DNA of 64,000 bases from Arcobacteraceae bacterium (GCA_963662945.1 OY759974.1:1792001-1856000), one strand, 5' to 3'. Counted from the stretch's first letter, positions 3,195 to 50,735 are shown. Notes: a model not told the origin generated them from the sequence alone. Numbers and translations are program-made.

Positions 3195-5687
3195 ATGATA
3201 GTTAGAGGTATTTTATTACTAAGTATTTTTTTTATTTTTGCTAACGCAGTTGAAAAAAAAGTATCAATCCAACTTTTATGGAAACATCAATTTGAATTTG
3301 CAGGGTATTATGTAGCAAAAGAAAAAGGTTTTTATAAAGAGGTAGGATTAGATGTAGATATAAAAGAGTATGAATTTGGAGTAAACATCGCTAAAGATGT
3401 GAGTGATGGTAAAAGTGATTTTGGAGTTGATAGTTCGGCTTTAATTTTAGACAAAATTCATGGACTAGATGTTTATTTACTTATGCCTACTTTACAAACG
3501 TCCCCTTTTGTATTATTAGCAAAAAAACGAGATGATTTAAAAACTGTTTCTGATTTAAAAGGTAAACGAGTTATGTTTACTCCAAATCAAGTAACTATGG
3601 CTTCATTGAATGCAATGTTTAAAGTAAATAATCTTTCTAGTAAAGATTTTATCTCTCAAGAACATAGTTTTAATACACAAGATTTAATAGATGGAAAAAC
3701 AGATGCTTTAACAGCTTATATTTCTAATGAACCTTTTTATATGATAGAAAAGAATCAAGACTATACTATTTTTAACCCCTCTGATTATGGTTTTAATTTT
3801 TATGATAATATTCTTTTTACTTCGCAAAAACTTTTTAAAAAAGATCCTCAATTAGTAAAAAATTTTTATGAAGCAACGAAAAAAGGTTGGGAGTATGCAT
3901 TTACTAACGTGGAAGAGAGTGCGAAAATTATACAGCAAAAGTATAATACGCAAAATAAATCATTAAAACATTTGATTTTTGAAGGAAATGAGCTTAAAAA
4001 ATTAAGTCATTTTGGGGCAAATGAGTATCATAAATTTAAGCCAGAAATCATCAGTCAAATTATACAAACATATAATTTATTGGATATTTCTAAATCGACA
4101 GTTGATATAAAAGAATTAATATATCCAGATGCAATGTATGTTGAAAGTAGTATTGATTATACACTTTTATTAGAGATTGTAGGTGCAATTTTAGTTTTAT
4201 TTATAGGATTTTATTATTGGAATAGAAAGTTATCATATCTTAATAAAACGATTCAAAAAAGTAGAAATAAAATTGCAGTATTACTTGATAATGCGGGACA
4301 AGGCTTTTTAACTTTTGATACAAACTTTATTGTTGATGATGAATATTCAACAGAGTGTACTAAAATTTTAGGAAATAATATTGCATCTCAAGATATTGCT
4401 GATTTATTATTTACAGATAGTGCTAAAAAAGAGTTTTTTAAAAATACATTAAAACTGTTATTACAAGAGAAAAATGAAATTAAAAGAAAATCTCTTATAT
4501 CTTTATTACCTCAAATAATTATAATAAATAAAAAAGCTATTAAAATAGAATATAAAGTTTTGGATGAAAGTTACTTTATGTTGATTTTAACAAATATTAC
4601 ATCACAAAAGAAGCTTGAAAACAAAGTCAAAAAAGAGCAAGAAACGTTAAAAATGATTGTAGCTATTGTAAGTGAATCTGAAATGTTTTTTGATTTAAAA
4701 AAAGAGTACATAAATTTTATCCATTCATATTCAACTTTTGTAGACTTAGATAAAACGCCTTTACACAATATAAGTAGTATTTATAGAATGATACATACAT
4801 TTAAAGGGACTTTTTCGCAATTATATATGCAAAATATAGTTGCTTTTTTACATCAATTAGAAAATGAAATATCTCATTTACAAATTAAAAGTAGTAGTTC
4901 TAATGAACAGTTATTAGAACTTTTAGATAATAGTGATTTTAATAAAAGTTTGAATATTACATTTAATATTATTAAAGAGGTTTTAGGTTCAGAGTTTTTA
5001 GAATCAGATAATTTTGTAAAGATAGATTATTTAGATATTGTAGATTTACAAGAAAAAATTGAAAATGTTTTAGGTAAACTCAAAGAAACAACACCTGAGT
5101 GTTATGAATTATTGTGTCAAGTACAAAATCTTTCTAGTACAAAACTCATAACACTATTACATCCATTTATTGCATCTACAAAACAGTTATCATCAAGACT
5201 TGAAAAAGAGATTTACGATTTTGAGATTATTGGAGATAGTAATATTGCTTTACCTGATAAATATAAACCTATGATAAAATCATTAGTTCATATTTTTAGA
5301 AACTGTATTGATCATGGGATTGAAAGTCCAGAAGTAAGATTGGAAAAAAATAAAGATGAAGTTGGTACTATCGCTTGTAACTTTGTTGTTGAAGATAGTA
5401 ATTTAATCATATCAATTTCAGATGATGGGGAAGGAATTAATTTAGATAAATTTAGAACTAAACTTAAAGAAAAAAATATTGATATTACAAATTTATCAGA
5501 AAATGAAATTTATCAATTCATTTTTGATGATAATTTTACAACAAATGAAAAATTATCAGACATCTCAGGAAGAGGAATTGGTATGAGTGCTGTAAAAAAT
5601 GAAGTTGATAAACTCAATGGAGTGATTAATATAAATTCACAAAAAGATAGTGGAACTACTTTTGAAATAGTAGTACCCCTTTCATAA
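3195..5687 (+). CDS. Membrane sensor kinase: NMT1/THI5-like periplasmic domain, TM, PAS-like, HPt, CheA-type HATPase; no CheW domain
   Basis: LLWKHQFEFAGYYVAKEKGFY (NMT1-like), TM near aa 325-342, YRMIHTFKG (HPt His), HIFRNCIDHGIE, ISDDGEGI and SGRGIGM (CheA-type ATPase); protein ends right after the ATPase. Confidence 0.85.
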   Translation: MIVRGILLLSIFFIFANAVEKKVSIQLLWKHQFEFAGYYVAKEKGFYKEVGLDVDIKEYEFGVNIAKDVSDGKSDFGVDSSALILDKIHGLDVYLLMPTLQTSPFVLLAKKRDDLKTVSDLKGKRVMFTPNQVTMASLNAMFKVNNLSSKDFISQEHSFNTQDLIDGKTDALTAYISNEPFYMIEKNQDYTIFNPSDYGFNFYDNILFTSQKLFKKDPQLVKNFYEATKKGWEYAFTNVEESAKIIQQKYNTQNKSLKHLIFEGNELKKLSHFGANEYHKFKPEIISQIIQTYNLLDISKSTVDIKELIYPDAMYVESSIDYTLLLEIVGAILVLFIGFYYWNRKLSYLNKTIQKSRNKIAVLLDNAGQGFLTFDTNFIVDDEYSTECTKILGNNIASQDIADLLFTDSAKKEFFKNTLKLLLQEKNEIKRKSLISLLPQIIIINKKAIKIEYKVLDESYFMLILTNITSQKKLENKVKKEQETLKMIVAIVSESEMFFDLKKEYINFIHSYSTFVDLDKTPLHNISSIYRMIHTFKGTFSQLYMQNIVAFLHQLENEISHLQIKSSSSNEQLLELLDNSDFNKSLNITFNIIKEVLGSEFLESDNFVKIDYLDIVDLQEKIENVLGKLKETTPECYELLCQVQNLSSTKLITLLHPFIASTKQLSSRLEKEIYDFEIIGDSNIALPDKYKPMIKSLVHIFRNCIDHGIESPEVRLEKNKDEVGTIACNFVVEDSNLIISISDDGEGINLDKFRTKLKEKNIDITNLSENEIYQFIFDDNFTTNEKLSDISGRGIGMSAVKNEVDKLNGVININSQKDSGTTFEIVVPLS

Positions 5688-5707
5688 AACTAGAAAAGGA
5701 AATAAAT

Positions 5708-6181
5708 ATGATATTAGATGCATTAATACTTCAATCAAAACTTTTTTTGTCTGAAGATATGGGAATAGATATAAATAATATAACAATTGATGAACTTAAT
5801 CCAGATAAATTGATTTTAAAAGATTATACTTCAATGATTGGTACTGGTGGAACTCTTAATTTAATGATTATTATTAGTTATGATAGTAATTTATTAAATC
5901 ATTTAGTGACACTTTTTATGGATGGTGAAGAGGTAGCACAAGATGAAATGGTTGAAGTGATTGATAGTGTGTCTGGAGAAACAATTAATACTATTATAGG
6001 GCTTGCTTTACCAACATTTCCAAATAGAGGTAAAGGTGTGACTATTACTCCACCAATTACGATAAATGATGCTTCAAATATTAAAAAATATAAAAACTCT
6101 AAAATAGTAAGTGCCAATATAGTAACACAATATGGTGAATTAAGTATTAGTGCCGTTGGTACAGAAGAATCAATAAAATAA
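5708..6181 (+). CDS. cheX: CheX-family phosphatase
   Basis: DSVSGETINTIIG (ExxN), ITPP motif; located between the CheA-like kinase and a CheY-like protein. Confidence 0.75.
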   Translation: MILDALILQSKLFLSEDMGIDINNITIDELNPDKLILKDYTSMIGTGGTLNLMIIISYDSNLLNHLVTLFMDGEEVAQDEMVEVIDSVSGETINTIIGLALPTFPNRGKGVTITPPITINDASNIKKYKNSKIVSANIVTQYGELSISAVGTEESIK

Positions 6182-6199
6182 GAAAAAAGGATAAAAAAT

Positions 6200-6613
6200 A
6201 TGTTAAAAGTTTTAGTAGTAGATGATTCACTTATTATAAGAAAAAAGATTACAAATTTATTAGAAAAATTAGGTCATGAGGTTGTTTTTAGTGCAACAAA
6301 TGGTCAAGAAGCGATTGATGGATATAATCAAACAAAACCAGATTTAGTAACAATGGATATAACAATGCCAGATATGGATGGTATAACAGCTGTAAAAAAT
6401 ATTATAAAAGATAATGCAGATGCTAAAATAATTATGGTAACATCTCATGGACAAGAAGATATGGTTATTAAATCAATTCAAGCAGGGGCTGTTGGATATA
6501 TGCTAAAACCTATTACTGAAGATAAATTAGCAGCTTCAATTGGTGAAGTTTTTATTGAATATGCTGTTGATGAAGAAGATGAAGATTTAGATATTTTAGA
6601 TGATGAGATTTAG
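6200..6613 (+). CDS. Single-domain CheY-like response regulator with acidic tail
   Basis: VLVVDDS, MDITMPDMDG, MVTS and LKP receiver motifs; tail DEEDEDLDILDDEI. Confidence 0.9.
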   Translation: MLKVLVVDDSLIIRKKITNLLEKLGHEVVFSATNGQEAIDGYNQTKPDLVTMDITMPDMDGITAVKNIIKDNADAKIIMVTSHGQEDMVIKSIQAGAVGYMLKPITEDKLAASIGEVFIEYAVDEEDEDLDILDDEI

Positions 6614-6623
6614 GATTTAAAGA

Positions 6624-7556
6624 ATGGAAGAAAACAAACTTTTTGAAGCACTTTTAGATGTAATACCCTTTGCTGCATATGCCGTAGATATTGAGACTTA
6701 TGAAGTGGTATACGCAAATAAACTAATGGGAGAAAGTTTGTATGCACCGAGAGAAAACTTTTGTTGGAAAAAAGTTTTTGGACAAAATGAAGTTTGTAGT
6801 TGGTGTACAATTTCAGAGTTAAAGCAAAGAAAAGCTATTTATCATAGTGAAAAACTTGTTACAAACTTTTTTGATGAAGTAACTGACAAATGGCTTCAAA
6901 GTTACGATGAGCTTGTTAGATGGCCTGATGGAAGAACTGTAAAATACTCCATAGCTGTTGATATTACAGAACAAAAAGAGATACAAGCAAATATGATTAA
7001 AACTCATACAAAGCTTGCAATACAAACAAAAGCGTTACGAGAAGCTAATGAAAAGTTAGAATATATGGCTACAAAAGATTACTTAACAGGGATTAATAAT
7101 AGGGGTAGTTTTTTTGAACAAGCGAAAAAAATATGGGAACAGCCACTCAAAACAAATGAAAAAATATATATAGCTATGTTTGATCTTGATAAATTTAAAA
7201 ATATTAATGATACTTATGGACATCAAGTAGGGGATACAGTGCTTAAAGAATTTGCTAAGAGTGTTTCCTCAAATATAGATGAAAATGATATATTCGCTAG
7301 AATTGGTGGCGAAGAATTTGTTTTATTAACTATAAGTGAAGATGAAAAAAAAGTAATAGAAAAACTTGAAAAAATGAGACAAAATGTAGAAAATTTATCT
7401 TTAACTTCTCAAAAGGAGAATTTACAATTGACAGTATCAATTGGACTAAGTTCTAAACTTGATAATCAAACAATAGATCAAACTCTTGATTTCGCAGATA
7501 AAAAACTTTATGAAGCAAAAAATAGTGGAAGAAATAACATAAAGTTTAGATTATAA
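6624..7556 (+). CDS. Diguanylate cyclase with N-terminal Cys-containing PAS-like domain
   Basis: DYLTGINNR, DLDKFKNINDTYGH, RIGGEEF; the RxxD I-site position reads DEND. Confidence 0.9.
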   Translation: MEENKLFEALLDVIPFAAYAVDIETYEVVYANKLMGESLYAPRENFCWKKVFGQNEVCSWCTISELKQRKAIYHSEKLVTNFFDEVTDKWLQSYDELVRWPDGRTVKYSIAVDITEQKEIQANMIKTHTKLAIQTKALREANEKLEYMATKDYLTGINNRGSFFEQAKKIWEQPLKTNEKIYIAMFDLDKFKNINDTYGHQVGDTVLKEFAKSVSSNIDENDIFARIGGEEFVLLTISEDEKKVIEKLEKMRQNVENLSLTSQKENLQLTVSIGLSSKLDNQTIDQTLDFADKKLYEAKNSGRNNIKFRL

Positions 7557-7570
7557 ATTAGGGATGCAAT

Positions 7571-9781
7571 ATGTTAGAAAATAAATTATTTGAAGCATTA
7601 TTAGATGTTATTCCTTTTGGGGCATATGCTGTAGATGTAGAAACTTATGAAATTGTTTATGCAAATAAAATAGTAAGAGAAAATATGTATGCACCACAAG
7701 AAACATATTGCTGGGAAAAAATATACGGACAAAATGAGATTTGTAGTTGGTGTAGTATTATAAATCTTCAACAACGAGTTCGCGGGGTTAAAAAAGAAAA
7801 ATATACTTGTGAGTTTTTTGATGAAATAGATGATAAATGGATAAAGTCTTATGATGAACTTATATGCTGGCCAGATGGTAGAGATGTAAAATACTCCATT
7901 TTAGTTGATACTACTGATCAAAAAGCAACTCAAGGTTCAATGATACAATCTCATGCAAAATTAGCAGTAAAATCAAAGCAGATTACAAAAACAAATCAAA
8001 ATCTTCAAATAACAAAATTAAAACTTCAAAAAACAGTAAGAGAACTTCAAGAACAAAAAGAAAAAGCAGAAGAAGCAACAAAGTTTAAATCAAATTTTTT
8101 AGCAAATATGAGTCATGAAATCAGAACACCAATGAATGGTATTTTAGGTATGACACATTTAGCACTTCAAACAGATGATATAGTAAAACAAAAAGAGTAC
8201 ATACAAAAAATTGATAGTTCAGCAAAAAACTTATTATATATTATAAATGATATTTTAGATTTTTCTAAAATAGAAGCAGGAAAATTAGAAGTTGAAAAGA
8301 TAAGTTTTGATATGAAAAGTGTTATAACAAATCTTCGAAATATTACTGAACTTAAAGCTGATGAAAAAAATATTTCATATGAAATATTTTATGAAGAGGA
8401 AAATAGTATTTATATAGGTGATCCAATACGACTTGGGCAAATTTTGATAAATTTAGTTAATAATGCAATAAAGTTTACTCACAGTGGAGGAGTTCAAGTT
8501 TATGTTGAAAGCTTAGATAATACTGTTAGATTTATAGTAAAAGACAGTGGAATTGGGATTACAAAAGAACAACAAAAAATATTATTTCAATCTTTTTCTC
8601 AAGCAGATGTTAGTACAACTAGAAAATATGGTGGTACAGGTTTAGGATTGTCCATATCTAAACAACTTGTTGAGATGATGGGTGGTAAAATTGAAATTTA
8701 TAGTGAATTTGGAAAGGGAAGTGAATTTGTATTTGAATTACCTTTACAAAAAGGGTTAGAAGATAGTATTGACACACCAGTTCAGTCATTAAATCAATTA
8801 TTACAACAAATGACATTATTGGATAAAGTGAAAATACTTTTAGTAGAAGACAATGAAACGAATCGATTTTTAATTCAAGGACTTCTTGAGTTTGATTCCA
8901 TCGAGGTTGTAAATGCATATGATGGAAAAATGGCGGTAGATATTTTTCAAAAGTTTTCAAATGATTTTGATTTGATTTTAATGGATATTCAAATGCCTGT
9001 TATGGATGGATACGAAGCTACCAAAATTATAAGAGAACAAAATCAACAAATACCAATTATCGCATTAAGTGCAAATGCGATGGTTCAAGATATTCAAAAT
9101 AGTAAAAATGCGCAGATGAATGAGCATTTAAATAAACCATTAGAAGTTGAATCACTTTATCGATGTATTTTAAAATATTGTACAAAGAAAAAAATAGTAG
9201 TATCTCCAAATAATAGTGAAGATATTATTGTTATCCCAATATTAAAACATATTGATATCAATTATGGGCTGACTATGGTCAATCAGAATAGAAAGTTATA
9301 TGTGAAAATTTTATTAAGTTTTTATGATAATTATTCTAATTTAAATTTAGAATCTTTAAGTAAAGAAGAATTTTTAAGAACTATTCATACATTAAAAGGT
9401 TTGAGTGCAAATATTGGTGCAAAAGATTTTTATGAAATTATAAAACACATTGAAAGTGTAGAAGATAGTTTTTTTATAGAACAGTTTTATAAAGAATTGA
9501 AATTGATTTTAGAAGAAATTAAAGAGTTGAAAAATATAAAATATTCTCAAGATAATAAAGAAAAGTTAGATATTGATGAAAATGAAAAAAACATTTTGTT
9601 TGACAATCTAAAACAAGCACTGATGACAAAAAAACCTAAAAAATGTTATGACGTAATAGAGGTATTAAATAAATATAAATTAAATGAAGAAGATAAAAAA
9701 CTATTTGAAAGTACAAAAAAATTTATAGAAAAATTTAATTTTAACGAAGCCCTAAAATTATTTGAAAGTGTAAATCATTAA
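7571..9781 (+). CDS. Hybrid histidine kinase (PAS-like, HisKA, HATPase, REC, HPt)
   Basis: [56 protein letters not shown]. Confidence 0.95.
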
Positions 9782-10065
9782 AGAACAAGTTTTAATTTTT
9801 TTTGTTCATTATTTTTAAAAATCATTTTTATTTGTTTATCATCTAATAATAGTTGTTTAAGTATTTTTGTTTCAATATTTGTAATTTCTTTTTTCTCAAG
9901 AAAATCATCTATTATCTCTTTTGCTGAATCAATATCAGTATTTTGAGTAAATTCAATAAGTAGTGAGTTATCACTAAGTACAATCTTTTGATTTGATATT
10001 CTAAAATTTTTAAATTTGCCTGTAAGCTTAAAAAACTCTAGTTTATTTCGTCTTGATAAGTACAC
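9778..10065 (-). CDS. Hypothetical protein (true start may be upstream at 10098)
   Basis: 95-aa ORF filling the gap; the frame stays open upstream to an AGGAG at 10105-10109. Confidence 0.55.
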
Positions 10066-10184: not shown

Positions 10185-10493
10185 CTAGGAATTACATTTT
10201 TTTTCTAGATCAGGTATTTCCATATTAAGGTAACTAATCTCTTTTAGAATTGACTGCCTAAATTGGTCTAGAGGTTTTCTTACACTATAGTATGCCCATC
10301 TTCCTTTTCTATCAACTTTTAAAAAACCTGCATCTTTAAGTATTTTTAAATGTCGTGATATTCTTGACTGTATCATCCCAAATGAGTTTTCAATGTCACA
10401 AACACATACTTCGCCATTTATATTTATAAAATGAAGTATTTTAATTCTTGTTTCATCATTTAAACTACTGATTGTTTTTAGAAATATCTCCAT
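10185..10493 (-). CDS. arsR: ArsR/SmtB-family transcriptional repressor
   Basis: EVCVCDI metalloid-binding motif, QSRISRHLKILKDAG HTH, RKGRWAYY wing. Confidence 0.9.
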   Translation of the reverse strand: MEIFLKTISSLNDETRIKILHFININGEVCVCDIENSFGMIQSRISRHLKILKDAGFLKVDRKGRWAYYSVRKPLDQFRQSILKEISYLNMEIPDLEKKCNS

Positions 10494-10502
10494 ACTCTAT
10501 CT

Positions 10503-11804
10503 TTATTTGAATTTTATAATAATCATACCACAAAATTTATTGTCATTATCATAAAACTCAACTCTAAAACTTTTTTGTTCCTTGTCAACAGCAAATCTAT
10601 CGAGAATATCTTTTTTTGAAATAAGAATATTATTTTCATTATCAACATTATCTTTACTAAAACCAATAATATTGACCCTGAAGTTTGTAGAGGCATTAAT
10701 TTTAAAGGTCTTATTTACTTCGATAATATCACCAAATTTAGCAATTTTATTTTCATTGTCAACAACTAATTTTATATCATCTTTTAAATCACAATATTCA
10801 AAGTATTGGGGAATTAAAGTCCCAACTCTTTTGTTTCCTATCATAAAATTATAATTTCCTTTGTATTTTACAATAGCCCCTAGTGGATGTTCAAATTTAA
10901 AAATATTATCACTATTTTTAAGTGGAAAATAGTAGTTTGTAGATTTTATAGTTTCTAAATCAAGGGTAATACGGTCATTGATTTTGACTTTTTTATAGTT
11001 ATTTAAAATAGCTTCTAGTTGTTCAAGGTTATCTAAATCAAAATTTCTTTCATATTCAATTCCCATAATATTCATAAAACTCTCAATGGCTTTGAGTTGA
11101 TATTTTACTTTTTTAACTAAATCAGTAATATTTTTACTAGTTTCTACTGCAAATGCAGGTTTATGATGTGTGATGGCAAAATAGGTAAGGGAAAGTTGCA
11201 TCTGTTCATCTTTCTCTTTTGTTTTTGTATTTTTTATATTAAAAGAGTGATGATTTTCTACCAGTCCATTATTGAGGTCAACACTCACTTGTTTTGCAAT
11301 CTCATCAAGATTTGAAAATTTTATATCTTTATGAATTTTAGTTTGATCTATAATAAAAGCTTGTCCCCAAGCACTAGGATTAAAAATAGAACTTTCCCAT
11401 TTATGTCTATAAAATCCTCTTCCATCGTGCAGATTCAAAATTAAATCCACTTTTTTATCTAAGATAAGTTTTTTTATATTTTGTACAGTTTCATAATCTT
11501 CATCATTTTTTTCTACTTTATTGAATTTTCTATTCATATCTCCGTAGATTCCACGTTGATTTCTGACAATACTATCAAAATTGAGGTTTGGTACTATCCA
11601 AAGAGAGCCTTTTTTGATAGTATAATTTTGAATTAATACAGAAGGAGCAAAATACCCACCAGGCTCATCACCGTGAATTCCACCAATCACTAATAAAGTA
11701 TTTTCCCCTTGAGCCTCTTTTTTGTGTAAATCAAAGTTAAGAATTGCTCCCATTAAAATATTTGTGATTAAAGTCACTAGTAAAAATGGTTTAAAAAGAT
11801 TCAT
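10503..11804 (-). CDS. M99-family peptidoglycan DL-carboxypeptidase (Csd4/Pgp1-like)
   Basis: Signal peptide; GGIHGDEPGG, GDMNRKF, LNLHDG and WGQAFIIDQ motifs. Confidence 0.85.
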   Translation of the reverse strand: MNLFKPFLLVTLITNILMGAILNFDLHKKEAQGENTLLVIGGIHGDEPGGYFAPSVLIQNYTIKKGSLWIVPNLNFDSIVRNQRGIYGDMNRKFNKVEKNDEDYETVQNIKKLILDKKVDLILNLHDGRGFYRHKWESSIFNPSAWGQAFIIDQTKIHKDIKFSNLDEIAKQVSVDLNNGLVENHHSFNIKNTKTKEKDEQMQLSLTYFAITHHKPAFAVETSKNITDLVKKVKYQLKAIESFMNIMGIEYERNFDLDNLEQLEAILNNYKKVKINDRITLDLETIKSTNYYFPLKNSDNIFKFEHPLGAIVKYKGNYNFMIGNKRVGTLIPQYFEYCDLKDDIKLVVDNENKIAKFGDIIEVNKTFKINASTNFRVNIIGFSKDNVDNENNILISKKDILDRFAVDKEQKSFRVEFYDNDNKFCGMIIIKFK

Positions 11805-11807
11805 ACT

Positions 11808-13298
11808 TTAATGTCCTCCCATAACTTTTTCTATCTCTTCAGGTTTATCATGGATTCCAAATCTATCTATAATTGTTGCGGTTGCTTCATTTTTTCCAAT
11901 GATTTCCACCTCAATACCAGCTTTTCGTAATTTATATACTGACTTATCAAGTGCAAAAACAGCTGAAACATCCCAAAAATGGGCACGACTTACATCAATA
12001 ACCACTTTTTTTATATTCTCTTTGAAATCAAAAGAGGCGATAAACTTATCACTACTATTGAAAAACACTTGACCTATAAATTTATAAAATTTTGTTTTTC
12101 CCTCATCTTCATAGTGTTCTTCGTGGTAAAAAAAGTGACTAATTTTATTGGCAAAAAAGAGTGAGGCTAATAATACTCCTGTAAGGACTCCCAGTGCTAA
12201 ATTGTGGGTAAATACTGTGACTAATGTGGTTGAAAGCATCACAATATTTGTAGAAAGAGGTAAGGTTTTAAGCCCAGTAATAGATGCCCAATTAAAGGTA
12301 CTAATAGAGACCATAATCATCACGGCAACTAAAGCAGCCATAGGGATGATAGCGACTAAATCACTTAAAAATACTACTAAAATAAGTAAAAATATCCCTG
12401 CTAAAAATGTAGAGAGTCTTCCTCTACCTCCTGATTTCACATTGATAACTGATTGTCCTATCATGGCACATCCAGCCATTCCCCCTAAACAACCAGAAGC
12501 GATATTGGCAATTCCTTGACCTCTTGCTTCTTTATTTTTATCACTTGTAGTATCAGTCATATCATCTAAAATAGTAGCAGTCATAAGTGACTCTAAAAGT
12601 CCCACAATTGCAAGTGAAAAAGAGTATGGAAAAATAATTTGTAAAGTTTCAAAATTTAAAGGGATGTTAGGGAGAAGAAAGATTGGTAAAGTATCAGGCA
12701 ATTCTCCCATATCTCCAACAGTTCGTATATCAATTCCAAAATAAGCCACAACGATTGTTAAAATAATGATAGTCACCAGTGGAGATGGTAAAAGTTTTCC
12801 TATTTTTGGTATATAAGGAAAAAGATAAATGATTCCTAATCCAATAGCAGTCAAAAGATACACATGCCAAGTAACATCAACAAGTTCAGGAAGTTGTGCC
12901 ATAAAAATAAGTATTGCTAGTGCGTTTACAAACCCAATCACCACCGCTCGTGCGACAAAACTCATCAATTTTGCAATACCAATATAGGCTAAAATAATTT
13001 GAAAAATTCCTGTTAAAATTGTAGCGGCTAGAAGGTATTGAAGTCCATGTTCTTTAACTAAAAGTACCATCACTAAAGCCATTGCTCCAGTTGCTGCACT
13101 AATCATAGCGGGTCTTCCACCGACAATTGAAATAACCACAGCGATACAAAAAGAGGCATAGAGACCAACTTTTGGGTCAACCCCAGCGATGATAGAAAAA
13201 GCTATCGCTTCAGGAATCAAGGCAATACCAACTACTAAAGCTGATAAAATATCTCCTCTTATATTTCCAAACCACTCTTTTTTAATATTTGTGTACAT
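11808..13298 (-). CDS. SulP/SLC26-family anion transporter with STAS domain
   Basis: [37 protein letters not shown]-terminal STAS (GQVFF...HFWDVSAV). Confidence 0.93.
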
Positions 13299-13322
13299 TT
13301 AGTTCCTTAAAATATAATAGTG

Positions 13323-13412
13323 TAATTCTATAAATCACGTGTAATTTTTTTGTTAATCCTAAAAAAACTACTTATAGAATTATATTCATAATAATAAAAT
13401 ATCGCGATTGTA
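13323..13412 (-). promoter_or_regulatory. Putative sulP promoter (-10 TACAAT at 13407-13412) and structured 5' leader
   Basis: TTTAGATACAATCGC also precedes pyrH; 11-bp inverted repeat 13323-13333 / 13372-13382 encloses a second stem. Confidence 0.5.
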
Positions 13413-13440
13413 TCTAAATGTTAATTGGATGTTGGTTAAG

Positions 13441-13677
13441 CTATTTACTTTGAAGTATTTCTATGATTTCATCTACACTTAAAAGTTTTCCTGTACTTTT
13501 TACTGTTCCATCAACTACAAGAGCAGGGGTACTAACAACATTGTATTTCATAATCTCCATTATATCCTCCACTTTTTTTACATCATGAAATCCACCAATT
13601 TTTGTTAAAGCCTCTTTTGTATTAGCTTCTAGTGCTCTACATTTAGCACATCCAGTTCCTAAAATTTCTATTTTCAT
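13441..13677 (-). CDS. Small thioredoxin-like redox-active disulfide protein of ars clusters
   Basis: MKIEILGTGCAKC (CxxC) and STPALVVDG; follows arsP. Confidence 0.88.
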   Translation of the reverse strand: MKIEILGTGCAKCRALEANTKEALTKIGGFHDVKKVEDIMEIMKYNVVSTPALVVDGTVKSTGKLLSVDEIIEILQSK

Positions 13678-13690
13678 ACCTATCTCCTTT

Positions 13691-14653
13691 TTATAAAATT
13701 ATATTAAACATATACCCAACAAGAAGTATTCCTAAACCTACAATTGCAAAAAATATAGCGATAAGTTTAATATCTAATATTCTTTTTAATATCATAGCTT
13801 CTGGTAAACTTAAAGCTGTAACAGCCATCATAAATGCCAACGCACTTCCAAGTAACATCCCTTTGGCTGTTAATACTTCAACAAGTGGCATAACTCCTGC
13901 TGCGTTTGCATACATTGGTATCCCCATTAAAACAGCAACTGGCACAGCATACCAAGCATCGCCACCTGCATATTTTGCGATAAATTCTGCAGGAATATAT
14001 CCATGAATAAATGCACCAATTCCAACACCAATCATCACATAAAGATATATTTTTTTGAAAATATCGGCTGTATATTCCCAAGCTTCTTTTACTCTTTGTT
14101 GTAATGTAAGTTTAATTTGAACATCTTCAAGTTCTCCCTCAATTGGAGTAACAGGAATCAAAACATATTTTTCTATATTTTTGATTTTCCCTATAAAATA
14201 TCCACCAAATATAGCAACTACTAGTCCAAAACCTATATAGATAGCTGTAATTTTCCATCCAAACAGTCCAAATAACATTGCTATTGCAATTTCATTGTTT
14301 AAAGGAGATGAGATAAGAAAACTAAAAGTTATCCCTATAGGGATTCTTGCTTGCATAAATCCAAGAAATAATGGTATAGCACTACAGCTACAAAAAGGTG
14401 TAATGATACCAAAAAGTGCAGCAAGAATATTTCCACTAAATTCTGATTTTCCTTGTAGATACACACGAACTTTTTCCGTGTTAAAATAGGTTCGTAAAAA
14501 ACTTACTGCAAAAATAATAGTGATAAGTAAAATAAATATTTTTATAGTATCATAGATAAAAAAATGTGTAGCACTTCCTACAGCACTAGTAGATTCTAGT
14601 CCCCAAAAGTTATAAACTAATTTATCAACAATTTTTTCCCACCAATCAAACAT
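13691..14653 (-). CDS. arsP: ArsP-family permease (DUF318)
   Basis: TPFCSCSAIP and FMMAVTALSLPE signature motifs. Confidence 0.88.
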   Translation of the reverse strand: MFDWWEKIVDKLVYNFWGLESTSAVGSATHFFIYDTIKIFILLITIIFAVSFLRTYFNTEKVRVYLQGKSEFSGNILAALFGIITPFCSCSAIPLFLGFMQARIPIGITFSFLISSPLNNEIAIAMLFGLFGWKITAIYIGFGLVVAIFGGYFIGKIKNIEKYVLIPVTPIEGELEDVQIKLTLQQRVKEAWEYTADIFKKIYLYVMIGVGIGAFIHGYIPAEFIAKYAGGDAWYAVPVAVLMGIPMYANAAGVMPLVEVLTAKGMLLGSALAFMMAVTALSLPEAMILKRILDIKLIAIFFAIVGLGILLVGYMFNIIL

Positions 14654-15054
14654 TATAATCCTAAAGCTTTTTGAATTTTAGGAATTAAAATCATTTCAAT
14701 TTCATCGTACGTTTCTTCAAATGCCTCAAAACCTTTTCCATCTGGATCCTCAAATCCCACATGAATTTTAGGAATTGGTTTTGGAAACATTGGACAAGTT
14801 TCATTTGCATGGTCACATACAGTGATAACTAAATCAAAATCTTCATCGATAACTGTATCAAGTGTTTTACTGTGATATTCCTCTTTCCAAATTCCTTTTT
14901 CTTGTAGAAGTTTTTTTGCATTTGGATTCACTTTTCCACTAGCTTTCACTCCACTACTTTGGGCTTTTACTCCATTAAGTTTTGCATTTATAAGTGCTTC
15001 TGCTATGATACTTCTACAGCTATTTCCTGTACATAATACTAATACTTTTTTCAT
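14653..15054 (-). CDS. arsC: Thioredoxin-dependent arsenate reductase (LMW-PTP fold)
   Basis: LCTGNSCRS, VCDHANETCP, FEDPDG. Confidence 0.92.
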   Translation of the reverse strand: MKKVLVLCTGNSCRSIIAEALINAKLNGVKAQSSGVKASGKVNPNAKKLLQEKGIWKEEYHSKTLDTVIDEDFDLVITVCDHANETCPMFPKPIPKIHVGFEDPDGKGFEAFEETYDEIEMILIPKIQKALGL

Positions 15055-15066
15055 GTTTTTTCCTTT

Positions 15067-16320
15067 TTAAATTAATGTTAATAAAACTATAAATAACACA
15101 GGTGGTGTTACTATCATTCCAAATTTACTGTATTCTTTAAAACTGATTTTTACCCCTTTTTGTGATAATACATGCAACCATAATAGCGTAGCTAAGCTAC
15201 CAAATGGTGTCATTTTCGGTCCTAAATTACATCCAATAATATTTGCATATATCATTGCCTCATTTCCAATGTTTGCTAATGAAATATCCATAATCATAAT
15301 AGTTGGCATATTGTTCATAAAAGCACTTAAAAAAGCTGCGATAAAACCTGTACCAACAACTGCTATAAAATCACTTTGTGTAGCTAAATCTTTGAGTATT
15401 ACCTCTAGATAATCTGTTAGTCCAGCATTTTTAAGTCCATAAACAACTATATAAAGTCCAATACTGAACCACACAACTTGCCAAGGTGCTGTTTTAATAG
15501 TAAGCCATGCACGAGCAGATTTTGTGTAACTGGCAATTGCTAAAAATAAAAGTCCACCACCCAAAGCAAATAAACTTATTGGAAGATTATAAATATCTCC
15601 TATAAAATATCCAACTAAAAGTAGAGCTAAAAAGAACCAACTAAATTTAAAAAGTGCTTTATTTTTTAAAACATCATCTGGATTTTTAAGAAGCGTTATG
15701 TCTATCTCTTTTGGAATATCTTTTCGTAAAACTACCCATAGTACAATTATAGAGATAATTGTACTTACAACATAAGGGATAAACATATTTGATAGATATT
15801 CCACAAAACCTATATGAAAATAATTTGCTGTTACGATGTTTGTAAGATTTGAAAATACAAAAGGGAGTGATGCACTATCACTGATAAATCCACCTGCAAG
15901 TAAAAAAGCAATAATAGTTTTAAAATTGAGTTGTAGTATTCTCATTTTAGCTAAAAGTATTGGAGTGAGTATAAGTGCAGCTCCATCATTTGCAAAAAGT
16001 GCAGATACAAATGAACCTAAAAGTAGAGCATAGATAAACATCAAATGACCATTACCACGTGATAGTTTTGCCATTTTAATAGCACACCATTCAAAAAAAC
16101 CTATCTCATCTAAAACCATAGATAAAATAATAATTCCAATAAAAGCTAATGTAGCATCCCAAACTATATTTGTTACAGTTAATACATCATTAAAACTTAC
16201 AGCTCCAAATAGTAAAGCAGTTATTGCCCCTATAATTGCAGTTGTTCCTATTTGTAAATTTTTTGGTTGCCAAATAACAAACAAAAGGGTGAGTAAAAAT
16301 ATTACACTAGCAGTGAACAT
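15067..16320 (-). CDS. arsB: Arsenite efflux pump ArsB
   Basis: SALFANDGAALILTP, MNNMPT, GPKMTPFGSLATLLWLHVL. Confidence 0.93.
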   Translation of the reverse strand: MFTASVIFLLTLLFVIWQPKNLQIGTTAIIGAITALLFGAVSFNDVLTVTNIVWDATLAFIGIIILSMVLDEIGFFEWCAIKMAKLSRGNGHLMFIYALLLGSFVSALFANDGAALILTPILLAKMRILQLNFKTIIAFLLAGGFISDSASLPFVFSNLTNIVTANYFHIGFVEYLSNMFIPYVVSTIISIIVLWVVLRKDIPKEIDITLLKNPDDVLKNKALFKFSWFFLALLLVGYFIGDIYNLPISLFALGGGLLFLAIASYTKSARAWLTIKTAPWQVVWFSIGLYIVVYGLKNAGLTDYLEVILKDLATQSDFIAVVGTGFIAAFLSAFMNNMPTIMIMDISLANIGNEAMIYANIIGCNLGPKMTPFGSLATLLWLHVLSQKGVKISFKEYSKFGMIVTPPVLFIVLLTLI

Positions 16321-17365: not shown

Positions 17366-18751
17366 ATGACAAAAATAATTGATTTAAAAGAATTTGCATA
17401 TTTTTTAAGAGTTCATAGAAATGATATTATAACAAATTGGCTTGAAAGAAATGAAGTGAAAAATATTATTCATAAACATTCAATACCAATAGTTGAAAAA
17501 AATATGAATATTTTTTATGGATTTTGTGATTGTTTTATAAGTATTTATCAATGGAATTTTACAATATCAGAATGTCAGGCAAGGATGGATTTTTTACATC
17601 TTCTAAATAAATATAATGTTACGAATAATGAACTTTATACATTGATATTACGATTACAATCAGCAATAGAAAATGCAATTTATAAAGATGGAAATCTTTC
17701 TTATAATATTCAGATGGAATTGGAAACAGTTACCATAAGTATTGCAAATGAACTTACTGATACATATGCGCATTTAAAGGATGAAAATAGTTATAAGCAA
17801 AATGAGCAGAGTAATCTTTTAGCTGAATATAAAAAAGCAGTAGATATTAGTAATATTGTATCAAAAACAAATCCTAAAGGGATTATCACCTATGTAAACG
17901 ATAAGTTTTGTAAAATAAGTGGATATACACAAGAAGAACTTATTGGAAAAGCACATAATATTATACGGCATCCAAGTATGGATAGAGAAGTATTTAAAGA
18001 GTTATGGGATACTGTAAAATCTAAAAAATCTTGGCATGGAATAGTGACTAATATGGCAAAAGATGGAAGTTCTTATGTTGTTGACTCTACTGTGATTCCT
18101 ATACTTGATGTTGATGGTGATATTATAGAATTTATTGCAGTTAGACATGATATAACAGAATTTGAAAAAACAAAAGAACAGTTACAAAATATTAATAAAG
18201 TTATGAGAAATAAAGTTGATGAACTTTATTCAGTTACATCCTCTTTGGAAGAAAAAGCAACAAAAGACGAGTTAACAAGTTTATATAATAGAGCTAAATT
18301 TGAAGAGATTTTTTCATATGAGATTAACAAAGCAAAACATTATAATCACAATTTAAGTGTAATATTATTTGATATAGATCATTTTAAAAATATTAATGAT
18401 ACTTATGGACATCAAGCGGGAGATGTTACATTAAAAGAGCTTTCAAGTTTGATTGCGAAAAATATTAAAACAAGTGATGTATTTGCAAGATGGGGTGGTG
18501 AAGAGTTTATTATACTTTTACCTGATACTGATATTGAAGGCGCTTTACAATTTGCTCAGAAATTAAGAAAATTAATTAAAGCAAATAAATTTACTGAAAT
18601 AGAATTTATGACAGCAAGTTTTGGTGTTGCGCAGTTTGAGGAATATGAAGATAAGCTTACCTTATTTGAAAAAGTTGATAAAGCATTATATATAGCAAAA
18701 AATAATGGTAGAGATAGAGTAGAACAAAGTCTTTTTAATTGTGTGCACTAA
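17366..18751 (+). CDS. PAS-GGDEF diguanylate cyclase with N-terminal helical domain
   Basis: Aer-like PAS (ELIGKAHNIIRHPSM...LWDTV), DELTSLYNR, RWGGEEF. Confidence 0.9.
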   Translation: MTKIIDLKEFAYFLRVHRNDIITNWLERNEVKNIIHKHSIPIVEKNMNIFYGFCDCFISIYQWNFTISECQARMDFLHLLNKYNVTNNELYTLILRLQSAIENAIYKDGNLSYNIQMELETVTISIANELTDTYAHLKDENSYKQNEQSNLLAEYKKAVDISNIVSKTNPKGIITYVNDKFCKISGYTQEELIGKAHNIIRHPSMDREVFKELWDTVKSKKSWHGIVTNMAKDGSSYVVDSTVIPILDVDGDIIEFIAVRHDITEFEKTKEQLQNINKVMRNKVDELYSVTSSLEEKATKDELTSLYNRAKFEEIFSYEINKAKHYNHNLSVILFDIDHFKNINDTYGHQAGDVTLKELSSLIAKNIKTSDVFARWGGEEFIILLPDTDIEGALQFAQKLRKLIKANKFTEIEFMTASFGVAQFEEYEDKLTLFEKVDKALYIAKNNGRDRVEQSLFNCVH

Positions 18752-18847
18752 AAAAATAATAATAAAAGTATTTAATTTTCACTAAAGTTAAAGAGAGTAA
18801 TATTTTAGTATATAACTTTTTATTATAAAATGTTTTAAAGGATTATT

Positions 18848-20326
18848 ATGAAAAATAATCGAATAGTGTTAAAATATATTTTTGGATTATCATTTATATT
18901 AGCGATAATGTTTCTGTTTAGAGTATATTATGATATGAAACATTATGACAGTATGTTAGATATACAAAAAAATAATTTGACAAATGATATGCTAAGTGTA
19001 TTCAAAACTTCAGAAAAAAACCTTATTGCCAAATATCAGTTACTACATGCAGATTTTATTAATACTAATCAAATTGCAGAATATTTTAAAAATCATGAAA
19101 GAAAAAAATTGTATCAGTTGTTGAAAAAAGATTATGAAGATATAAAAGTAATAGATCCTAATTTTTTTGTAATGCATTTTATAGATAAAGATAATATTAC
19201 CGTTTTAAGAATGCATAAACCAGAATCTTATAATGATGATTTAACAACAAAAAGACCTATAGTTGCATACGCAAATAAAGTTATTAAAAAACAAACAGGT
19301 TTTGAAGTTGGTAAAAATGGTATGGTTTATAGAATAACAATGCCTTTTGTACATAATGGTGAACATATAGGAGTTTTGGAATTTGGTATTAAGCCAAAGT
19401 ATTTTGTTGATTCATTAAATGAAAAATACAAAGTTGAATCGATAATTTTAGTTAAAAAAGAGAAACTTGATGTTTTAACAGTAAAGAAAAATTATCAAGA
19501 ACTTGCTGAGTATGCAATAGTTTCTCAGAGTAAATTTTCAAAAAGATTTATAGAAAAACTAGATTTAACAAAAGCCACACAGGTAATTTTTTTAGAAGAT
19601 AAATATTTTTTAGTTGCAAATGAGTTAAATCTGAATGATTACCAAGGTAATGTAGTGTCAAAAGTTTTAATTATAAAAGATATTACCGAATTCATTTTAG
19701 ACAAAAATGAATCTTTACTTGTGATTAATAGTTTAAATTTGATAGTATTTTTGATAATCATTGTTGTTATCTACATATTGTTTAATAGGTTCAATGAAGA
19801 GATTCAAAAAAATATGAAAACTATAACTAGTTTAAATAAAAAATCTAAATATTTACATACAAAAGCCAATACGGATGAACTCACAAATATTTATAATAAA
19901 AGATATTTTGATACTTATTTAGAAAGTTTTATTCGATATGGTAATAAAGGTTCTATTATATTTTTTGATATTGATCACTTTAAAGAGATTAATGATACTT
20001 ATGGACATCAAATAGGGGATGTTATTCTTAAAAGTATTTCAAAATCAATCCGTAATCATATAAGACAAAATGATACTTTTGCAAGGTGGGGTGGGGAAGA
20101 ATTTGTAATAATCCTTAATAATCTTGATTTAGAGATGGCTGTAAAAAAAGCACAAGAATTTAGAAAATGTATCCAAGAGTATCAATTTGACCAAAACATC
20201 TCAATAACTATCTCTTTAGGGGTTACACAAGTTGACCCAAATGATACGAAAAGTACTCTTATCAAAAGAGTTGATTCTTTATTGTACAAAGCAAAACACA
20301 ATGGTAGAAATCGTGTTGAATCTTAA
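18848..20326 (+). CDS. Membrane diguanylate cyclase with periplasmic Cache-type domain
   Basis: Two TM helices flanking LRMHKPESYNDDL...GFEVGK; RQND I-site and RWGGEEF. Confidence 0.88.
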   Translation: MKNNRIVLKYIFGLSFILAIMFLFRVYYDMKHYDSMLDIQKNNLTNDMLSVFKTSEKNLIAKYQLLHADFINTNQIAEYFKNHERKKLYQLLKKDYEDIKVIDPNFFVMHFIDKDNITVLRMHKPESYNDDLTTKRPIVAYANKVIKKQTGFEVGKNGMVYRITMPFVHNGEHIGVLEFGIKPKYFVDSLNEKYKVESIILVKKEKLDVLTVKKNYQELAEYAIVSQSKFSKRFIEKLDLTKATQVIFLEDKYFLVANELNLNDYQGNVVSKVLIIKDITEFILDKNESLLVINSLNLIVFLIIIVVIYILFNRFNEEIQKNMKTITSLNKKSKYLHTKANTDELTNIYNKRYFDTYLESFIRYGNKGSIIFFDIDHFKEINDTYGHQIGDVILKSISKSIRNHIRQNDTFARWGGEEFVIILNNLDLEMAVKKAQEFRKCIQEYQFDQNISITISLGVTQVDPNDTKSTLIKRVDSLLYKAKHNGRNRVES

Positions 20327-21541: not shown

Positions 21542-21898
21542 TTAGTTTGATAAAAAAACATTGTTATAATCATTGATTTCATAGCCTACATATAGTTTTT
21601 CTTCACCATTGAGACCATGCTCACAAATAGGTCTTTTTATAAGAGAGTTATTTTCCCATAAAAGTTTTGTTTTTGTTTTAGTATTGAGATTTGTTCCTTT
21701 TAAGTTTAAGTCTCTATATGCTTTACTTCGAGGATTAAATAACTCTTTGGCTTCTGTAAATTGAAGCCAATATTCTATTTTTTCTTGTGAGATAGGATTT
21801 TTATCAATATCTATAAAGTCATAATTGATGTTGTTACTATCGAAGAACTCTTTTGCTTTTTTTACACTTGGACAAGTTTTTATTCCATATACTTTCAT
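21542..21898 (-). CDS. ArsC/Spx/YffB-family protein
   Basis: VYGIKTCPSVKKA, LIKRP. Confidence 0.85.
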   Translation of the reverse strand: MKVYGIKTCPSVKKAKEFFDSNNINYDFIDIDKNPISQEKIEYWLQFTEAKELFNPRSKAYRDLNLKGTNLNTKTKTKLLWENNSLIKRPICEHGLNGEEKLYVGYEINDYNNVFLSN

Positions 21899-45532: not shown

Positions 45533-46879
45533 TTGAAACAATTAATTAAATTTTTTTTAATTGTTATACTAATATCTCAATATTCTTTTGCTTTGACAAA
45601 GGAGTATTACAAAGATAAATATGATACAACTAAAAGGTTGTATTTAGGTGCTATTATGTCAAATGATAGAGCTAAAGAGATTGAATATTTAAAGAAACTC
45701 ATACGTTATGCAGATAAACTGAATATTGATACTTTAAAGTATCAAAAAGAGCTCAATCGAATCGATACAACTACAATAATACAAAATAAAGTACAAACAA
45801 AATCTTACTTAAAACCACAAGTATTAAAATCCAAATATACTATTAAATCTGTTGTACAAGACACAGAGAGTATAACAATAAATTTTTATGATGATATAGA
45901 CAAATCTTTTATTGATTTTGACGAGAGAAAAGACAACAAATATTTTTATGATGAATTTAATATAAAAGGTAATTTTAAAGATGCAAAACCAACAAAGCTT
46001 TTTATAAAAGGGGTTAGCAAAATAACAATATACCAGCATAGTGATGATATTTTAAGAATATCATTGCGAAATCAAACAAATTTAAAAACCATTTATATAA
46101 TAGGAAAAAAAAGTATTATTATAAAAGTTTTAGATTTAAATAAAAAACCTATTAAAAATAGTGTACAAATGCTTCCTCAAGATATGTTTTTCCCATCTGC
46201 AAAAACAATTGTTATTGATGCTGGTCATGGAGGTAAAGATTCTGGTGCTGTAGGCCCTGGAAAGAACTATGAAAAACATGTGGTTTTTGCAATAAGCAAA
46301 TATTTAAAAAAAGAATTAGAAAAAATGGGCTTTAAAGTATATCTTACAAGAGCAAGGGATAAATTTGTAGAACTAAGTGATAGAACACATTTTGCTAATA
46401 CTAAAAATGCAGATATTTTTATTTCACTTCATGCTAATGCTGTTCCAAGATCAAAAGCAAAAGAAGCTCATGGTATAGAAACATATTTTTTAAGTCCTGC
46501 AAGAAGCGCTAGAGCGAAAAGGGTTGCAGCTTTAGAAAATAAGGGTGATATGGATAAAATGAGTTTAGGAAGTAAAGATTCTCTTTTAACTATCTTAAAT
46601 CAGTCAAAAATAACAGCTTCAAATAAAATTGCAATTGATGTGCAAAGAAATATGCTTTATACTTTAAGAGGTATATATGGAAAAAGTAATATAAAAGATG
46701 GCGGAGTTCGAGAAGGACCATTTTGGGTACTTGTAGGAGCTCAAATGCCATCTATATTAATTGAAGTAGGTTATATTTCACATCCAAAAGAGGGAAGACG
46801 AATTAAAACAACAAGTTACCAAAAAAATATTGCAATTGGTATTGCCCAAGGTGTGAAAAGTTATTTTATAAAAAATTAA
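45533..46879 (+). CDS. amiA: N-acetylmuramoyl-L-alanine amidase (Amidase_3)
   Basis: IDAGHGGKD, FISLHAN, ILIEVGY; signal peptide. Confidence 0.9.
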   Translation: MKQLIKFFLIVILISQYSFALTKEYYKDKYDTTKRLYLGAIMSNDRAKEIEYLKKLIRYADKLNIDTLKYQKELNRIDTTTIIQNKVQTKSYLKPQVLKSKYTIKSVVQDTESITINFYDDIDKSFIDFDERKDNKYFYDEFNIKGNFKDAKPTKLFIKGVSKITIYQHSDDILRISLRNQTNLKTIYIIGKKSIIIKVLDLNKKPIKNSVQMLPQDMFFPSAKTIVIDAGHGGKDSGAVGPGKNYEKHVVFAISKYLKKELEKMGFKVYLTRARDKFVELSDRTHFANTKNADIFISLHANAVPRSKAKEAHGIETYFLSPARSARAKRVAALENKGDMDKMSLGSKDSLLTILNQSKITASNKIAIDVQRNMLYTLRGIYGKSNIKDGGVREGPFWVLVGAQMPSILIEVGYISHPKEGRRIKTTSYQKNIAIGIAQGVKSYFIKN

Positions 46880-48456: not shown

Positions 48457-48485
48457 GAGTTATTATACCTAAAAAAATCATAAGA

Positions 48486-50732: not shown

Positions 50733-50735
50733 AAA

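Follow-up and report, generated by a model that had tools for sequence, protein, structure and literature searches.

Class I histidine kinases fused to a binding protein are represented by BvgS and by Hk1 of Borrelia, the latter of which reportedly also feeds a cyclic di-GMP (c-di-GMP) cyclase. The Wsp system comprises a methyl-accepting chemotaxis protein (MCP), CheW, CheR, CheB and a REC-GGDEF cyclase. For CheA itself, the accessible part of a 2023 survey of 13,673 proteins reports P1, P3, P4 and P5 in all of them, CheW in 100% and no input domain, and states that the combination of HATPase_c and CheW "uniquely distinguishes" CheA (PMC10782961). The MAC1 and MAC2 proteins, related to chemotaxis systems, possess a methyl-accepting coiled coil together with CheB and CheR domains or genes; according to the available text of the preprint, they are experimentally uncharacterised and need no CheW bridge because receptor and kinase functions share one polypeptide (bioRxiv 10.1101/2022.05.07.491037). 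Here, we analyse five genes, g1 to g5, found at positions 3195-9781 of a 64,000-nucleotide stretch of an Arcobacteraceae genome (GCA_963662945.1 OY759974.1:1792001-1856000; the whole stretch is called the window below). With a probability of roughly 0.55, they are best explained as a single operon for a self-contained phosphorylation pathway, built around a sensor-fused CheA-type kinase (g1) and acting on a diguanylate cyclase (g4) and a hybrid kinase (g5).

The g1 gene (3195-5687; all five genes are on the plus strand) encodes an 830-residue sensor kinase. Behind a signal or anchor segment (residues 1-20), its order is sensor, transmembrane helix, PAS-like domain, P1, P3-like hairpin and P4, without P2 and P5. 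The sensor is an NMT1/THI5-like periplasmic solute-binding domain (residues 33-241, 3291-3917; Pfam NMT1, E 4e-47). Its closest solved structures are 4nmy (E 1e-16) and ThiY 3ix1 (E 5e-11), and the NCBIfam model SsuA_fam stays well under its cut-off (53.6 vs 163.5 bits). The transmembrane helix (residues 318-343, 4146-4223) was assigned from hydropathy, and AlphaFold2 (AF2), used with an alignment of 18 relatives, models an unbroken helix at residues 322-365. Since hydrophobic segments are found only at residues 1-20 and 318-343 in the hydropathy scan, residues 21-317 are predicted to be periplasmic. The cytoplasmic PAS-like domain (residues 363-467, 4281-4595) opens with the signature LLDNAGQGF and contains a near-invariant Cys388. 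No other family-specific part of the protein is as well conserved, as seen from invariant columns in the alignments, and the domain is modelled as an alpha/beta fold with a predicted local distance difference test score (pLDDT) of 80-90. A sub-segment scan of this domain gave no Pfam match at E≤10, and the atlas features that point toward PAS_7 clusters at 0.95 are a lead only. The helical bundle that follows (residues ~495-603, 4677-5003) corresponds to a P1-like HPt domain and carries the putative phospho-acceptor His534 in an HTFKG motif (codon 4794-4796). Matches to known HPt domains are weak, with 17.8 bits for Pfam Hpt at residues 525-578 (cut-off 24.6, reached by some relatives) and E 0.02 for CheA P1 1tqg. 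H534, T535, K537 and G538 do not vary among 18 sequences; a wider set of 39 sequences, covering three phyla, keeps the His, Thr and Lys of the motif without exception and the Gly almost so (≥90%). In the AF2 model, His534 is carried by a helical bundle spanning residues 469-603 (pLDDT 80-90).

At the C-terminus, the CheA-type ATP-binding domain P4 (residues 658-829, 5166-5681) shows the N, G1, F and G2 boxes and matches P4 of Thermotoga maritima CheA (1i58, E 1e-31). HATPase_c is recognised by Pfam at residues 696-829 (E 2e-14), Foldseek gives TM-scores of 0.83-0.89 with P4 structures, and NCBIfam CheA models match g1 solely across this part. H699, N703, D706, H707, G708, D743-G745, F777 and G792-G796 are identical in all 18 sequences compared. 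Ahead of P4, AF2 and Foldseek point to a two-helix hairpin (residues 612-646, 5028-5132), a P3-like putative dimerisation domain; the g1 model aligns with CheA P3P4 4xiv over 249 columns (TM-score 0.70 on the target, E 3e-14). Because the protein stops one residue past P4, it has no space for P5. Pfam gave neither a CheW nor an H-kinase_dim match on the whole protein at E≤0.01 or on residues 576-662 at E≤10, and no HisKA-type domain at E≤0.01, unlike in g5. A cryptic CheW within residues 345-470 was also considered and discarded, this region being predicted as alpha/beta and PAS-like, not as a pair of beta-barrels.

These data substantiate most of what a previous sequence-only reading of the window had described. 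It had reported five co-oriented genes with gaps of 10-20 bp, and five open reading frames (ORFs) are indeed separated by 20, 18, 10 and 14 bp. The NMT1 domain, transmembrane helix, HPt His and CheA-type ATPase that it had assigned to g1 are recovered by Pfam, 1i58 and hydropathy, and the CheW domain that it had found missing is likewise missing from the domain search, in a protein that stops at P4. It had further noted that the window has no MCP, CheW, CheR or CheB gene, and the Pfam scan agrees, with no MCPsignal, CheW, CheR or CheB domain in the 60 ORFs scanned (≥80 residues in the first 16 kb, ≥100 residues elsewhere). The PAS-like domain (~363-467) and the P3-like hairpin (612-646) had been overlooked. 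The label "class III histidine kinase" used in that reading does not hold, as among the literature matches listed, in so far as their text was accessible, the term refers to group III hybrid kinases of fungi, Bos1 among them.

Like canonical CheA, g1 has its phospho-acceptor His on an HPt bundle rather than on a DHp helix, a CheA-type P4, a putative two-helix hairpin at the P3 place, and a CheY-like receiver and CheX as partners. It differs from CheA by the lack of P5 and CheW, by its own sensor and an invariant PAS-like domain before the HPt, and by the absence of MCP, CheW, CheR and CheB in its vicinity. Its catalytic core, with P1 and P4 recognisable and P3 uncertain, is of the CheA type (class II histidine kinase), but with P5 missing and a sensor present, the g1 family lies outside the definition of the survey, because CheW is constant there and input domains are not found. 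The MAC proteins, as presented in the accessible text, are the nearest precedent for receptor and kinase in a single chain; MCPsignal is, however, absent from g1 and its relatives, and neither CheB nor CheR turned up in the surroundings, whether in the window or in 71 loci. The logic of class I sensor kinases is also the same, with a periplasmic sensor, a transmembrane helix, a cytoplasmic PAS, a kinase core and a cognate receiver. In g1, however, HisKA/DHp is lacking, the His is on an HPt bundle, the ATPase is of the CheA type with a long insert, and the output receiver is CheY-like with a dedicated CheX. Finally, Wsp resembles the g1 operon as a CheA-type kinase pathway with a diguanylate cyclase as output, whereas no receptor, adaptor or methylation gene occurs in the window and the input domain of g4 is PAS, not REC.

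It could be argued that g1 is a fragment of an ordinary chemotaxis kinase using CheW and receptors encoded elsewhere, or an inactive relic, or an assembly artefact. Arcobacteraceae are indeed reported to have chemotaxis systems in the accessible part of a study of Campylobacterota signalling (PMC9239204). Such an origin is nevertheless very improbable: g1 has its own sensor and no P5 for docking to CheW and receptors, the same architecture recurs in 20 loci with NMT1-type kinases and in hundreds of clusters, and all catalytic motifs are invariant.

The idea that the operon is a one-off oddity can be dismissed, since g1 belongs to a very large family with swappable sensors. A word-indexed protein search with g1 returned 4134 homologues. 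In the best 120 of these, the cytoplasmic 480 residues are 50-60% identical while the N-terminal sensor varies (NMT1, dCache_3, CHASE8+HAMP, MCP-like PDC, SBP_bac_3, or none recognised, among the matches listed), and none has CheW (PF01584). A family profile limited to the PAS-like, HPt and P3-like parts, with P4 left out, was then built from 39 sequences from three phyla and compared with 1.84 billion representatives. It matched 7349, 3742 and 943 clusters (50% identity) at E≤1e-3, 1e-10 and 1e-30, respectively. P4 is present in 149 of the best 150 of the 7349 representatives; 82 of these 150 end ≤25 residues after P4 and 64 have CheX fused after P4, the others having GAF (2), a 54-residue tail (1) or a truncated end (1). 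CheW was found neither in the tails of these 150 representatives nor in 33 kinase variants from other loci. Further sensors include dCache_1, dCache_2, CHASE2, NIT, 7TMR-DISM, Reg_prop/Y_Y_Y propellers, PAS + GAF arrays, Fe-hydrogenase-like modules with 4Fe-4S motifs, REC-DUF3369-GAF, and giants with Ser/Thr kinase-AAA_16-GAF. Over a dozen sensor types are represented across the family. In the accessible text of the survey, CheC/CheX fusions are noted solely in Leptospirae F1 CheAs (PMC10782961). As in the 64 fused proteins mentioned above, a kinase and a CheY-P phosphatase are thereby joined in one protein; the Leptospirae fusions are, however, full CheAs with CheW, as far as that text goes, whereas in the g1 family CheX comes directly after P4, at the P5 place.

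Among the matches listed, full-length kinases of the family are called "ABC transporter substrate-binding protein" or "cache domain-containing protein" in NCBI-derived sources (P0009, P0030 and P0031 are examples) and "CheA" in JGI sources; the NCBI-derived names come from the sensor and hide the kinase. Some Bacillota members combine an Fe-hydrogenase-like sensor with 4Fe-4S motifs and a terminal CheX (L046, 3172-6555; L051, 6594-9992; P0131; P0197), which may make them variants of the pathway that sense H2 or a redox cue. Another member, P0125, is a giant of 4858 residues with a membrane sensor, a PAS-like domain, ~26 HPt-like repeats in a row and P4 at its end; its HPt repeats far exceed those of multi-Hpt ChpA-type CheAs.

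The second gene, g2 (5708-6181), encodes a predicted CheX-type CheY-P phosphatase of 157 residues. It contains S87-x3-E91-x2-N94 ... P116, in agreement with S/D-x3-E-x2-N ... P, the active-site motif reported for CheX (Park et al. 2004, cited in PMC10782961). Its assignment to the CheX family is supported by Pfam (48.7 bits vs a cut-off of 27) and by alignment to T. maritima CheX 1squ, in which the E and N of the motif are matched. In 54 orthologues, E is kept in 51 (D in 3), N in 54 and P in 54. The third gene, g3 (6200-6613), encodes a single-domain CheY-like receiver of 137 residues with D8, D9, D53, T81 and K103 and an acidic C-terminal tail. Response_reg is its only Pfam domain (E 2e-31), and CheY models are the top NCBIfam matches, yet under their cut-offs (106 vs 200 bits). 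The catalytic quintet is invariant in 33 orthologues, and no other protein of the set is as well conserved as g3 (mean column identity 75%). The acidic tail (residues 123-137, 6566-6610), which is D/E-rich and then reads DLxLLDDxx, is kept in most of 31 Campylobacterota-like orthologues and missing from two Desulfovibrionaceae ones; a role as docking peptide is conceivable. Because CheX adjoins the kinase gene or is fused to the kinase at the P5 place, the design probably centres on a rapid turnover of the CheY-like protein. A 259-residue Hpt-REC protein is encoded elsewhere in the window (62025-62804, plus strand). Its HPt part is hit by the HPt region of the g1 family profile (E 4e-8) and its REC by the g3 profile (E 1e-13), and the protein could be a further partner of g1 or of a similar kinase.

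Conservation of the gene neighbourhood was studied by a one-genome-per-species scan giving 404 relatives, of which the best 80, in 73 loci, were compared. Counts were obtained with phmmer of g1-g5 against all raw ORFs of the loci, and the loci were grouped according to source titles as given (some titles of metagenome-assembled genomes are odd) and similarity. The kinase core is held by 72 of the 73 loci, L039 being cut by a contig end. In the 51 Campylobacterota-like loci, CheX is encoded 3' of the kinase in 43, a g3-like receiver is present in 45, and both occur in 42, where the order kinase-CheX-CheY is kept. In the 13 Bacillota loci, CheX is fused to the C-terminus of the kinase in 8 (Pfam adds a ninth, L052), the receiver is adjacent in 10, and both features occur in 8. 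In the 8 Desulfobacterota loci, these numbers are 3 (CheX 3' of the kinase), 8 (receiver adjacent, upstream in 5) and 3. Overall, a receiver gene adjoins the kinase in 63 of the 72 loci. Downstream genes were counted in the Campylobacterota-like loci having ≥4.5 kb downstream (n=41): a PAS-GGDEF gene follows in 28, a PAS-kinase gene in 16, and all five genes are found in 16. For NMT1-type kinases with the same room, kinase-CheX-CheY-PAS-GGDEF is found in 16 of 17 loci and all five genes in 11 of 17. The nearest loci elsewhere belong to Arcobacteraceae genomes (80% identity for g1). In Desulfovibrionaceae (L047, L049), all five parts are present with the order of cyclase and kinase swapped. Chance adjacency of the five genes is ruled out by this conserved gene order. 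The sequence-only reading, for which a lack of conservation or an inactive kinase would have spoken against its proposal, is thus upheld as to gene order, and the catalytic motifs are intact in all five proteins. Its suggestion that the pathway "resets through CheX" is consistent with the intact, conserved CheX motif and with the frequent fusion of CheX to the kinase.

In six loci (L002, L010, L012, L016, L019, L020), two kinases of the family with different sensors stand in tandem before one CheX and one CheY; several sensors can therefore feed one receiver. The additional kinase, directly before the NMT1-type one (L002, 5683-7992; L010; L012; L016; L019; L020, 10482-13055), has 769 residues and an unrecognised sensor. 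An SBP_bac_3 gene (~250 residues) precedes it in 12 loci; in the window, there is only a 242-bp spacer ahead of g1. A survey of the 327 other ORFs located ≤3 genes from the clusters in 71 loci, reduced to 225 clusters, revealed no CheW, CheR or CheB and two MCPs (L045, L057). Genes for c-di-GMP effectors often flank the clusters, for instance a LapD-like GGDEF-EAL receptor and a LapG-like BTLCP protease in L035 (8214-10917, minus strand). YfiR-like DUF4154 genes occur in L005 (4619-6857, minus strand), which also has a REC-GGDEF-EAL gene, and in L028 (4495-5001). In some Bacillota (L059, 3030-5636; L064, 6829-7215), the kinase-CheX fusion stands beside SiaA-like (HAMP-SpoIIE), DUF6272, SiaC-like and GGDEF genes; loci of this type would join a partner-switch module to a g1-type pathway.

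The two remaining genes encode proteins predicted to be soluble because neither has a hydrophobic segment. The g4 gene (6624-7556) specifies a diguanylate cyclase, as judged from its GGDEF domain (residues 150-305; Pfam 140 bits), in which GGEEF at position 228 is kept in 32 of 32 orthologues; an RxxD I-site is absent, DEND being found at that place. The g5 gene (7571-9781) specifies a protein with the features of an unorthodox or hybrid histidine kinase, namely HisKA (H182; 75 bits), HATPase_c and REC (D472), all above their Pfam cut-offs, and a weakly recognised HPt-like end (H606 in HTLKG; 19.9 bits). Over their first 146 residues, g4 and g5 share 60% identity, which the sequence-only reading had overlooked. 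This region, which we call the Cys3 PAS domain (residues 1-150 of each protein, with the long linker helix in g4; 6624-7073 and 7571-8020), is a new input domain common to cyclase and kinase. It has no Pfam match at E≤10 in a sub-segment scan, is modelled as a PAS fold with a long C-terminal helix (pLDDT 84), and bears a generic likeness only, to PAS_4 clusters and LOV-type sensors; Foldseek of the model returned generic LOV and PAS sensors and no cofactor clue. All 60 sequences compared have C47, C58 and C61, and >90% have H128. All 64 Cys3 PAS ORFs, in 37 loci, begin ≤1.5 kb downstream of a g3-like gene, and stand-alone copies are present (L069, L070). In several loci, the fifth gene is a bare PAS stub of 171-227 residues; REC is missing from 4 of 18 fifth-gene versions (L006, L037, L047, L049), the PAS domain being the constant feature. 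A complex prediction for the CheY-like protein with the Cys3 PAS domain (0.34 vs 0.22 for the control) weighs neither for nor against binding.

Taken together, it can be proposed that the NMT1-type domain of g1 captures a ligand in the periplasm, where direct sensing is plausible, and that the signal travels via the single transmembrane helix and then the invariant cytoplasmic PAS-like domain. The latter would occupy the role held by P5, CheW and receptor arrays in canonical CheA; it is the best candidate for the coupling element because it stands directly before the HPt and is present whatever the sensor. Within a g1 dimer held by the P3-like hairpin, P4 would phosphorylate His534 of the HPt, from which the phosphoryl group would pass to Asp53 of g3. 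Dephosphorylation of g3 by CheX (g2) would then ensure a fast on/off cycle. Phosphorylated g3 would act on g4, giving a c-di-GMP output, and on g5, giving a second phosphorelay, most likely via their common Cys3 PAS domain. We infer every phosphotransfer step as well as the role of the PAS-like domain. This holds above all for the step from phosphorylated g3 to g4 and g5, which we infer from strict adjacency, from the common PAS input domain and from PAS, not REC, being constant in g5; the connection with c-di-GMP and a second phosphorelay, already suggested in the sequence-only reading, is based on this adjacency and on the common PAS domain.

It should, however, be noted that several observations weigh against this pathway. 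The helices of the hairpin in g1 (612-629 and 634-646) are modelled with a low pLDDT of about 60, and no Pfam match to H-kinase_dim was obtained for residues 576-662 at E≤10; according to the accessible text of the CheA survey, HMMER often misses P3 of CheA (PMC10782961). The association of Cys3 PAS genes with g3-like genes was probed near kinases only, the loci having been picked via the kinase. The NMT1-type kinase of L018 has no partner genes beside it and lies between flhA and fliI, two flagellar genes. Thirteen of the 41 Campylobacterota-like loci with room have kinase-CheX-CheY but lack a Cys3-PAS gene behind it, which implies that the CheY-like protein acts on something else, or on targets whose genes lie elsewhere. 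Lastly, its three invariant cysteines suggest that the Cys3 PAS may bind a metal or cofactor and sense by itself.

This last point leads to the main alternative explanation, in which the kinase-CheX-CheY core works as proposed above while g4 and g5 have sensors of their own. Their Cys3 PAS would bind a metal, an Fe-S cluster or a redox-active cofactor, co-transcription with the core would serve solely to let signals from outside and inside the cell meet at c-di-GMP, and g3 would act elsewhere, for example on the flagellar motor or on a protein encoded elsewhere. The invariant cysteines and the widespread H128, the PAS fold with a long output helix as in LOV and FixL sensor modules, the 13 loci lacking such a PAS gene and the flagellar setting of the L018 kinase all agree with this view. 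Nevertheless, each of the 64 Cys3 PAS copies lies directly behind a g3-like gene, and this pairing is found in both Campylobacterota and Desulfovibrionaceae, which speaks for a closer functional tie than mere co-regulation. Sensing by the Cys3 PAS itself, with g3 acting elsewhere, is a tentative possibility and on balance unlikely, and the two explanations are not exclusive of each other.

Sink receivers occur in chemotaxis systems, and a sink role is discussed in the accessible part of the CheA survey (PMC10782961). By analogy, g3 might mainly be a phosphate sink drained by CheX, with the phosphoryl group flowing from the HPt of g1 to the REC of g5, then to the HPt of g5 and on to another response regulator, and with g4 regulated separately. 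The complete REC (D472) and the HPt-like end (H606) of g5 are in favour of such a flow. It is, however, hard to reconcile with the fifth-gene orthologues that have no REC or HPt (4 of 18) or consist of just the PAS stub, and a sink would hardly be expected to be the best conserved member of the set, as g3 is. We thus regard a sink function as improbable and retain g3 acting on g4 and g5 as the preferred explanation.

As for the surroundings of the operon, terminator-like sites are at chance level (2 vs 1.2 expected from shuffles), the sole one on the plus strand being inside the GGEEF-coding stretch of g4, and promoter-like sites number 48 vs 52.5 expected, in a window of low G+C content (24-33%). 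A Csd4/Pgp1-type Peptidase_M99 gene adjoins the cluster. Convergent with g5, of which it overlaps the last 4 bp, a 95-residue ORF without Pfam match (9778-10065, minus strand) may not be a real gene. The window is rich in second-messenger genes (17366-20326, plus strand; 46876-51542, minus strand): PAS-GGDEF and dCache_3-GGDEF cyclases in tandem, a GAF-HD_5 (HD-GYP-like) protein, and a CHASE2-adenylate/guanylate cyclase adjoining a class-II cNMP phosphodiesterase-like gene. An arsenic-resistance-type cluster (10185-16320 and 21542-21898, minus strand) contains an ArsR regulator, an ArsP_1 permease, a low-molecular-weight phosphatase-type ArsC and an ArsB pump, with a second ArsC/glutaredoxin-type gene further along.

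The g1 family seems so far undescribed and unnamed. No account of CheW-less, sensor-fused CheA-type kinases was found in a literature search in which subscription journals were mostly outside scope, so that an earlier mention is possible. A preprint on incomplete kinases names neither CheA nor CheW in the part of its main text that was accessible (10.64898/2026.02.27.708494), and its 18 new profiles might cover the g1 family under another name. The Campylobacterota signalling study, in its available text, counted just HisKA + HATPase kinases (PMC9239204) and would for this reason have passed over the g1 family. More generally, censuses that count HisKA + HATPase_c proteins as kinases and HATPase_c + CheW proteins as CheAs miss proteins of the g1 type.

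CheA is the textbook example of a kinase unable to sense and controlled only inside receptor-CheW arrays; here, the same core is found under a fused sensor. With 943 clusters at E≤1e-30 and at least three phyla, the g1 family provides a simple, array-free system for studying class II kinase switching, and the operon allows one to test how a ligand in the periplasm might be coupled to c-di-GMP in Campylobacterota that are free-living. A wider interpretation can be put forward tentatively, though we consider it rather doubtful: a "one-piece CheA" could represent a third, unnamed design of histidine-kinase pathway, with a class II core (HPt, P3, P4) under any of many fused sensors, from solute-binding domains to Fe-hydrogenase-like modules, PAS-like coupling, CheX in the P5 place or next door, and a diffusible CheY-like output docking on a Cys3 PAS. 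Signals from outside the cell would in this way reach both c-di-GMP and a second phosphorelay. If this were true, the family may bear on the origin of CheA, either as a sensor kinase that lost its sensor or, conversely, through a CheA that gained one.

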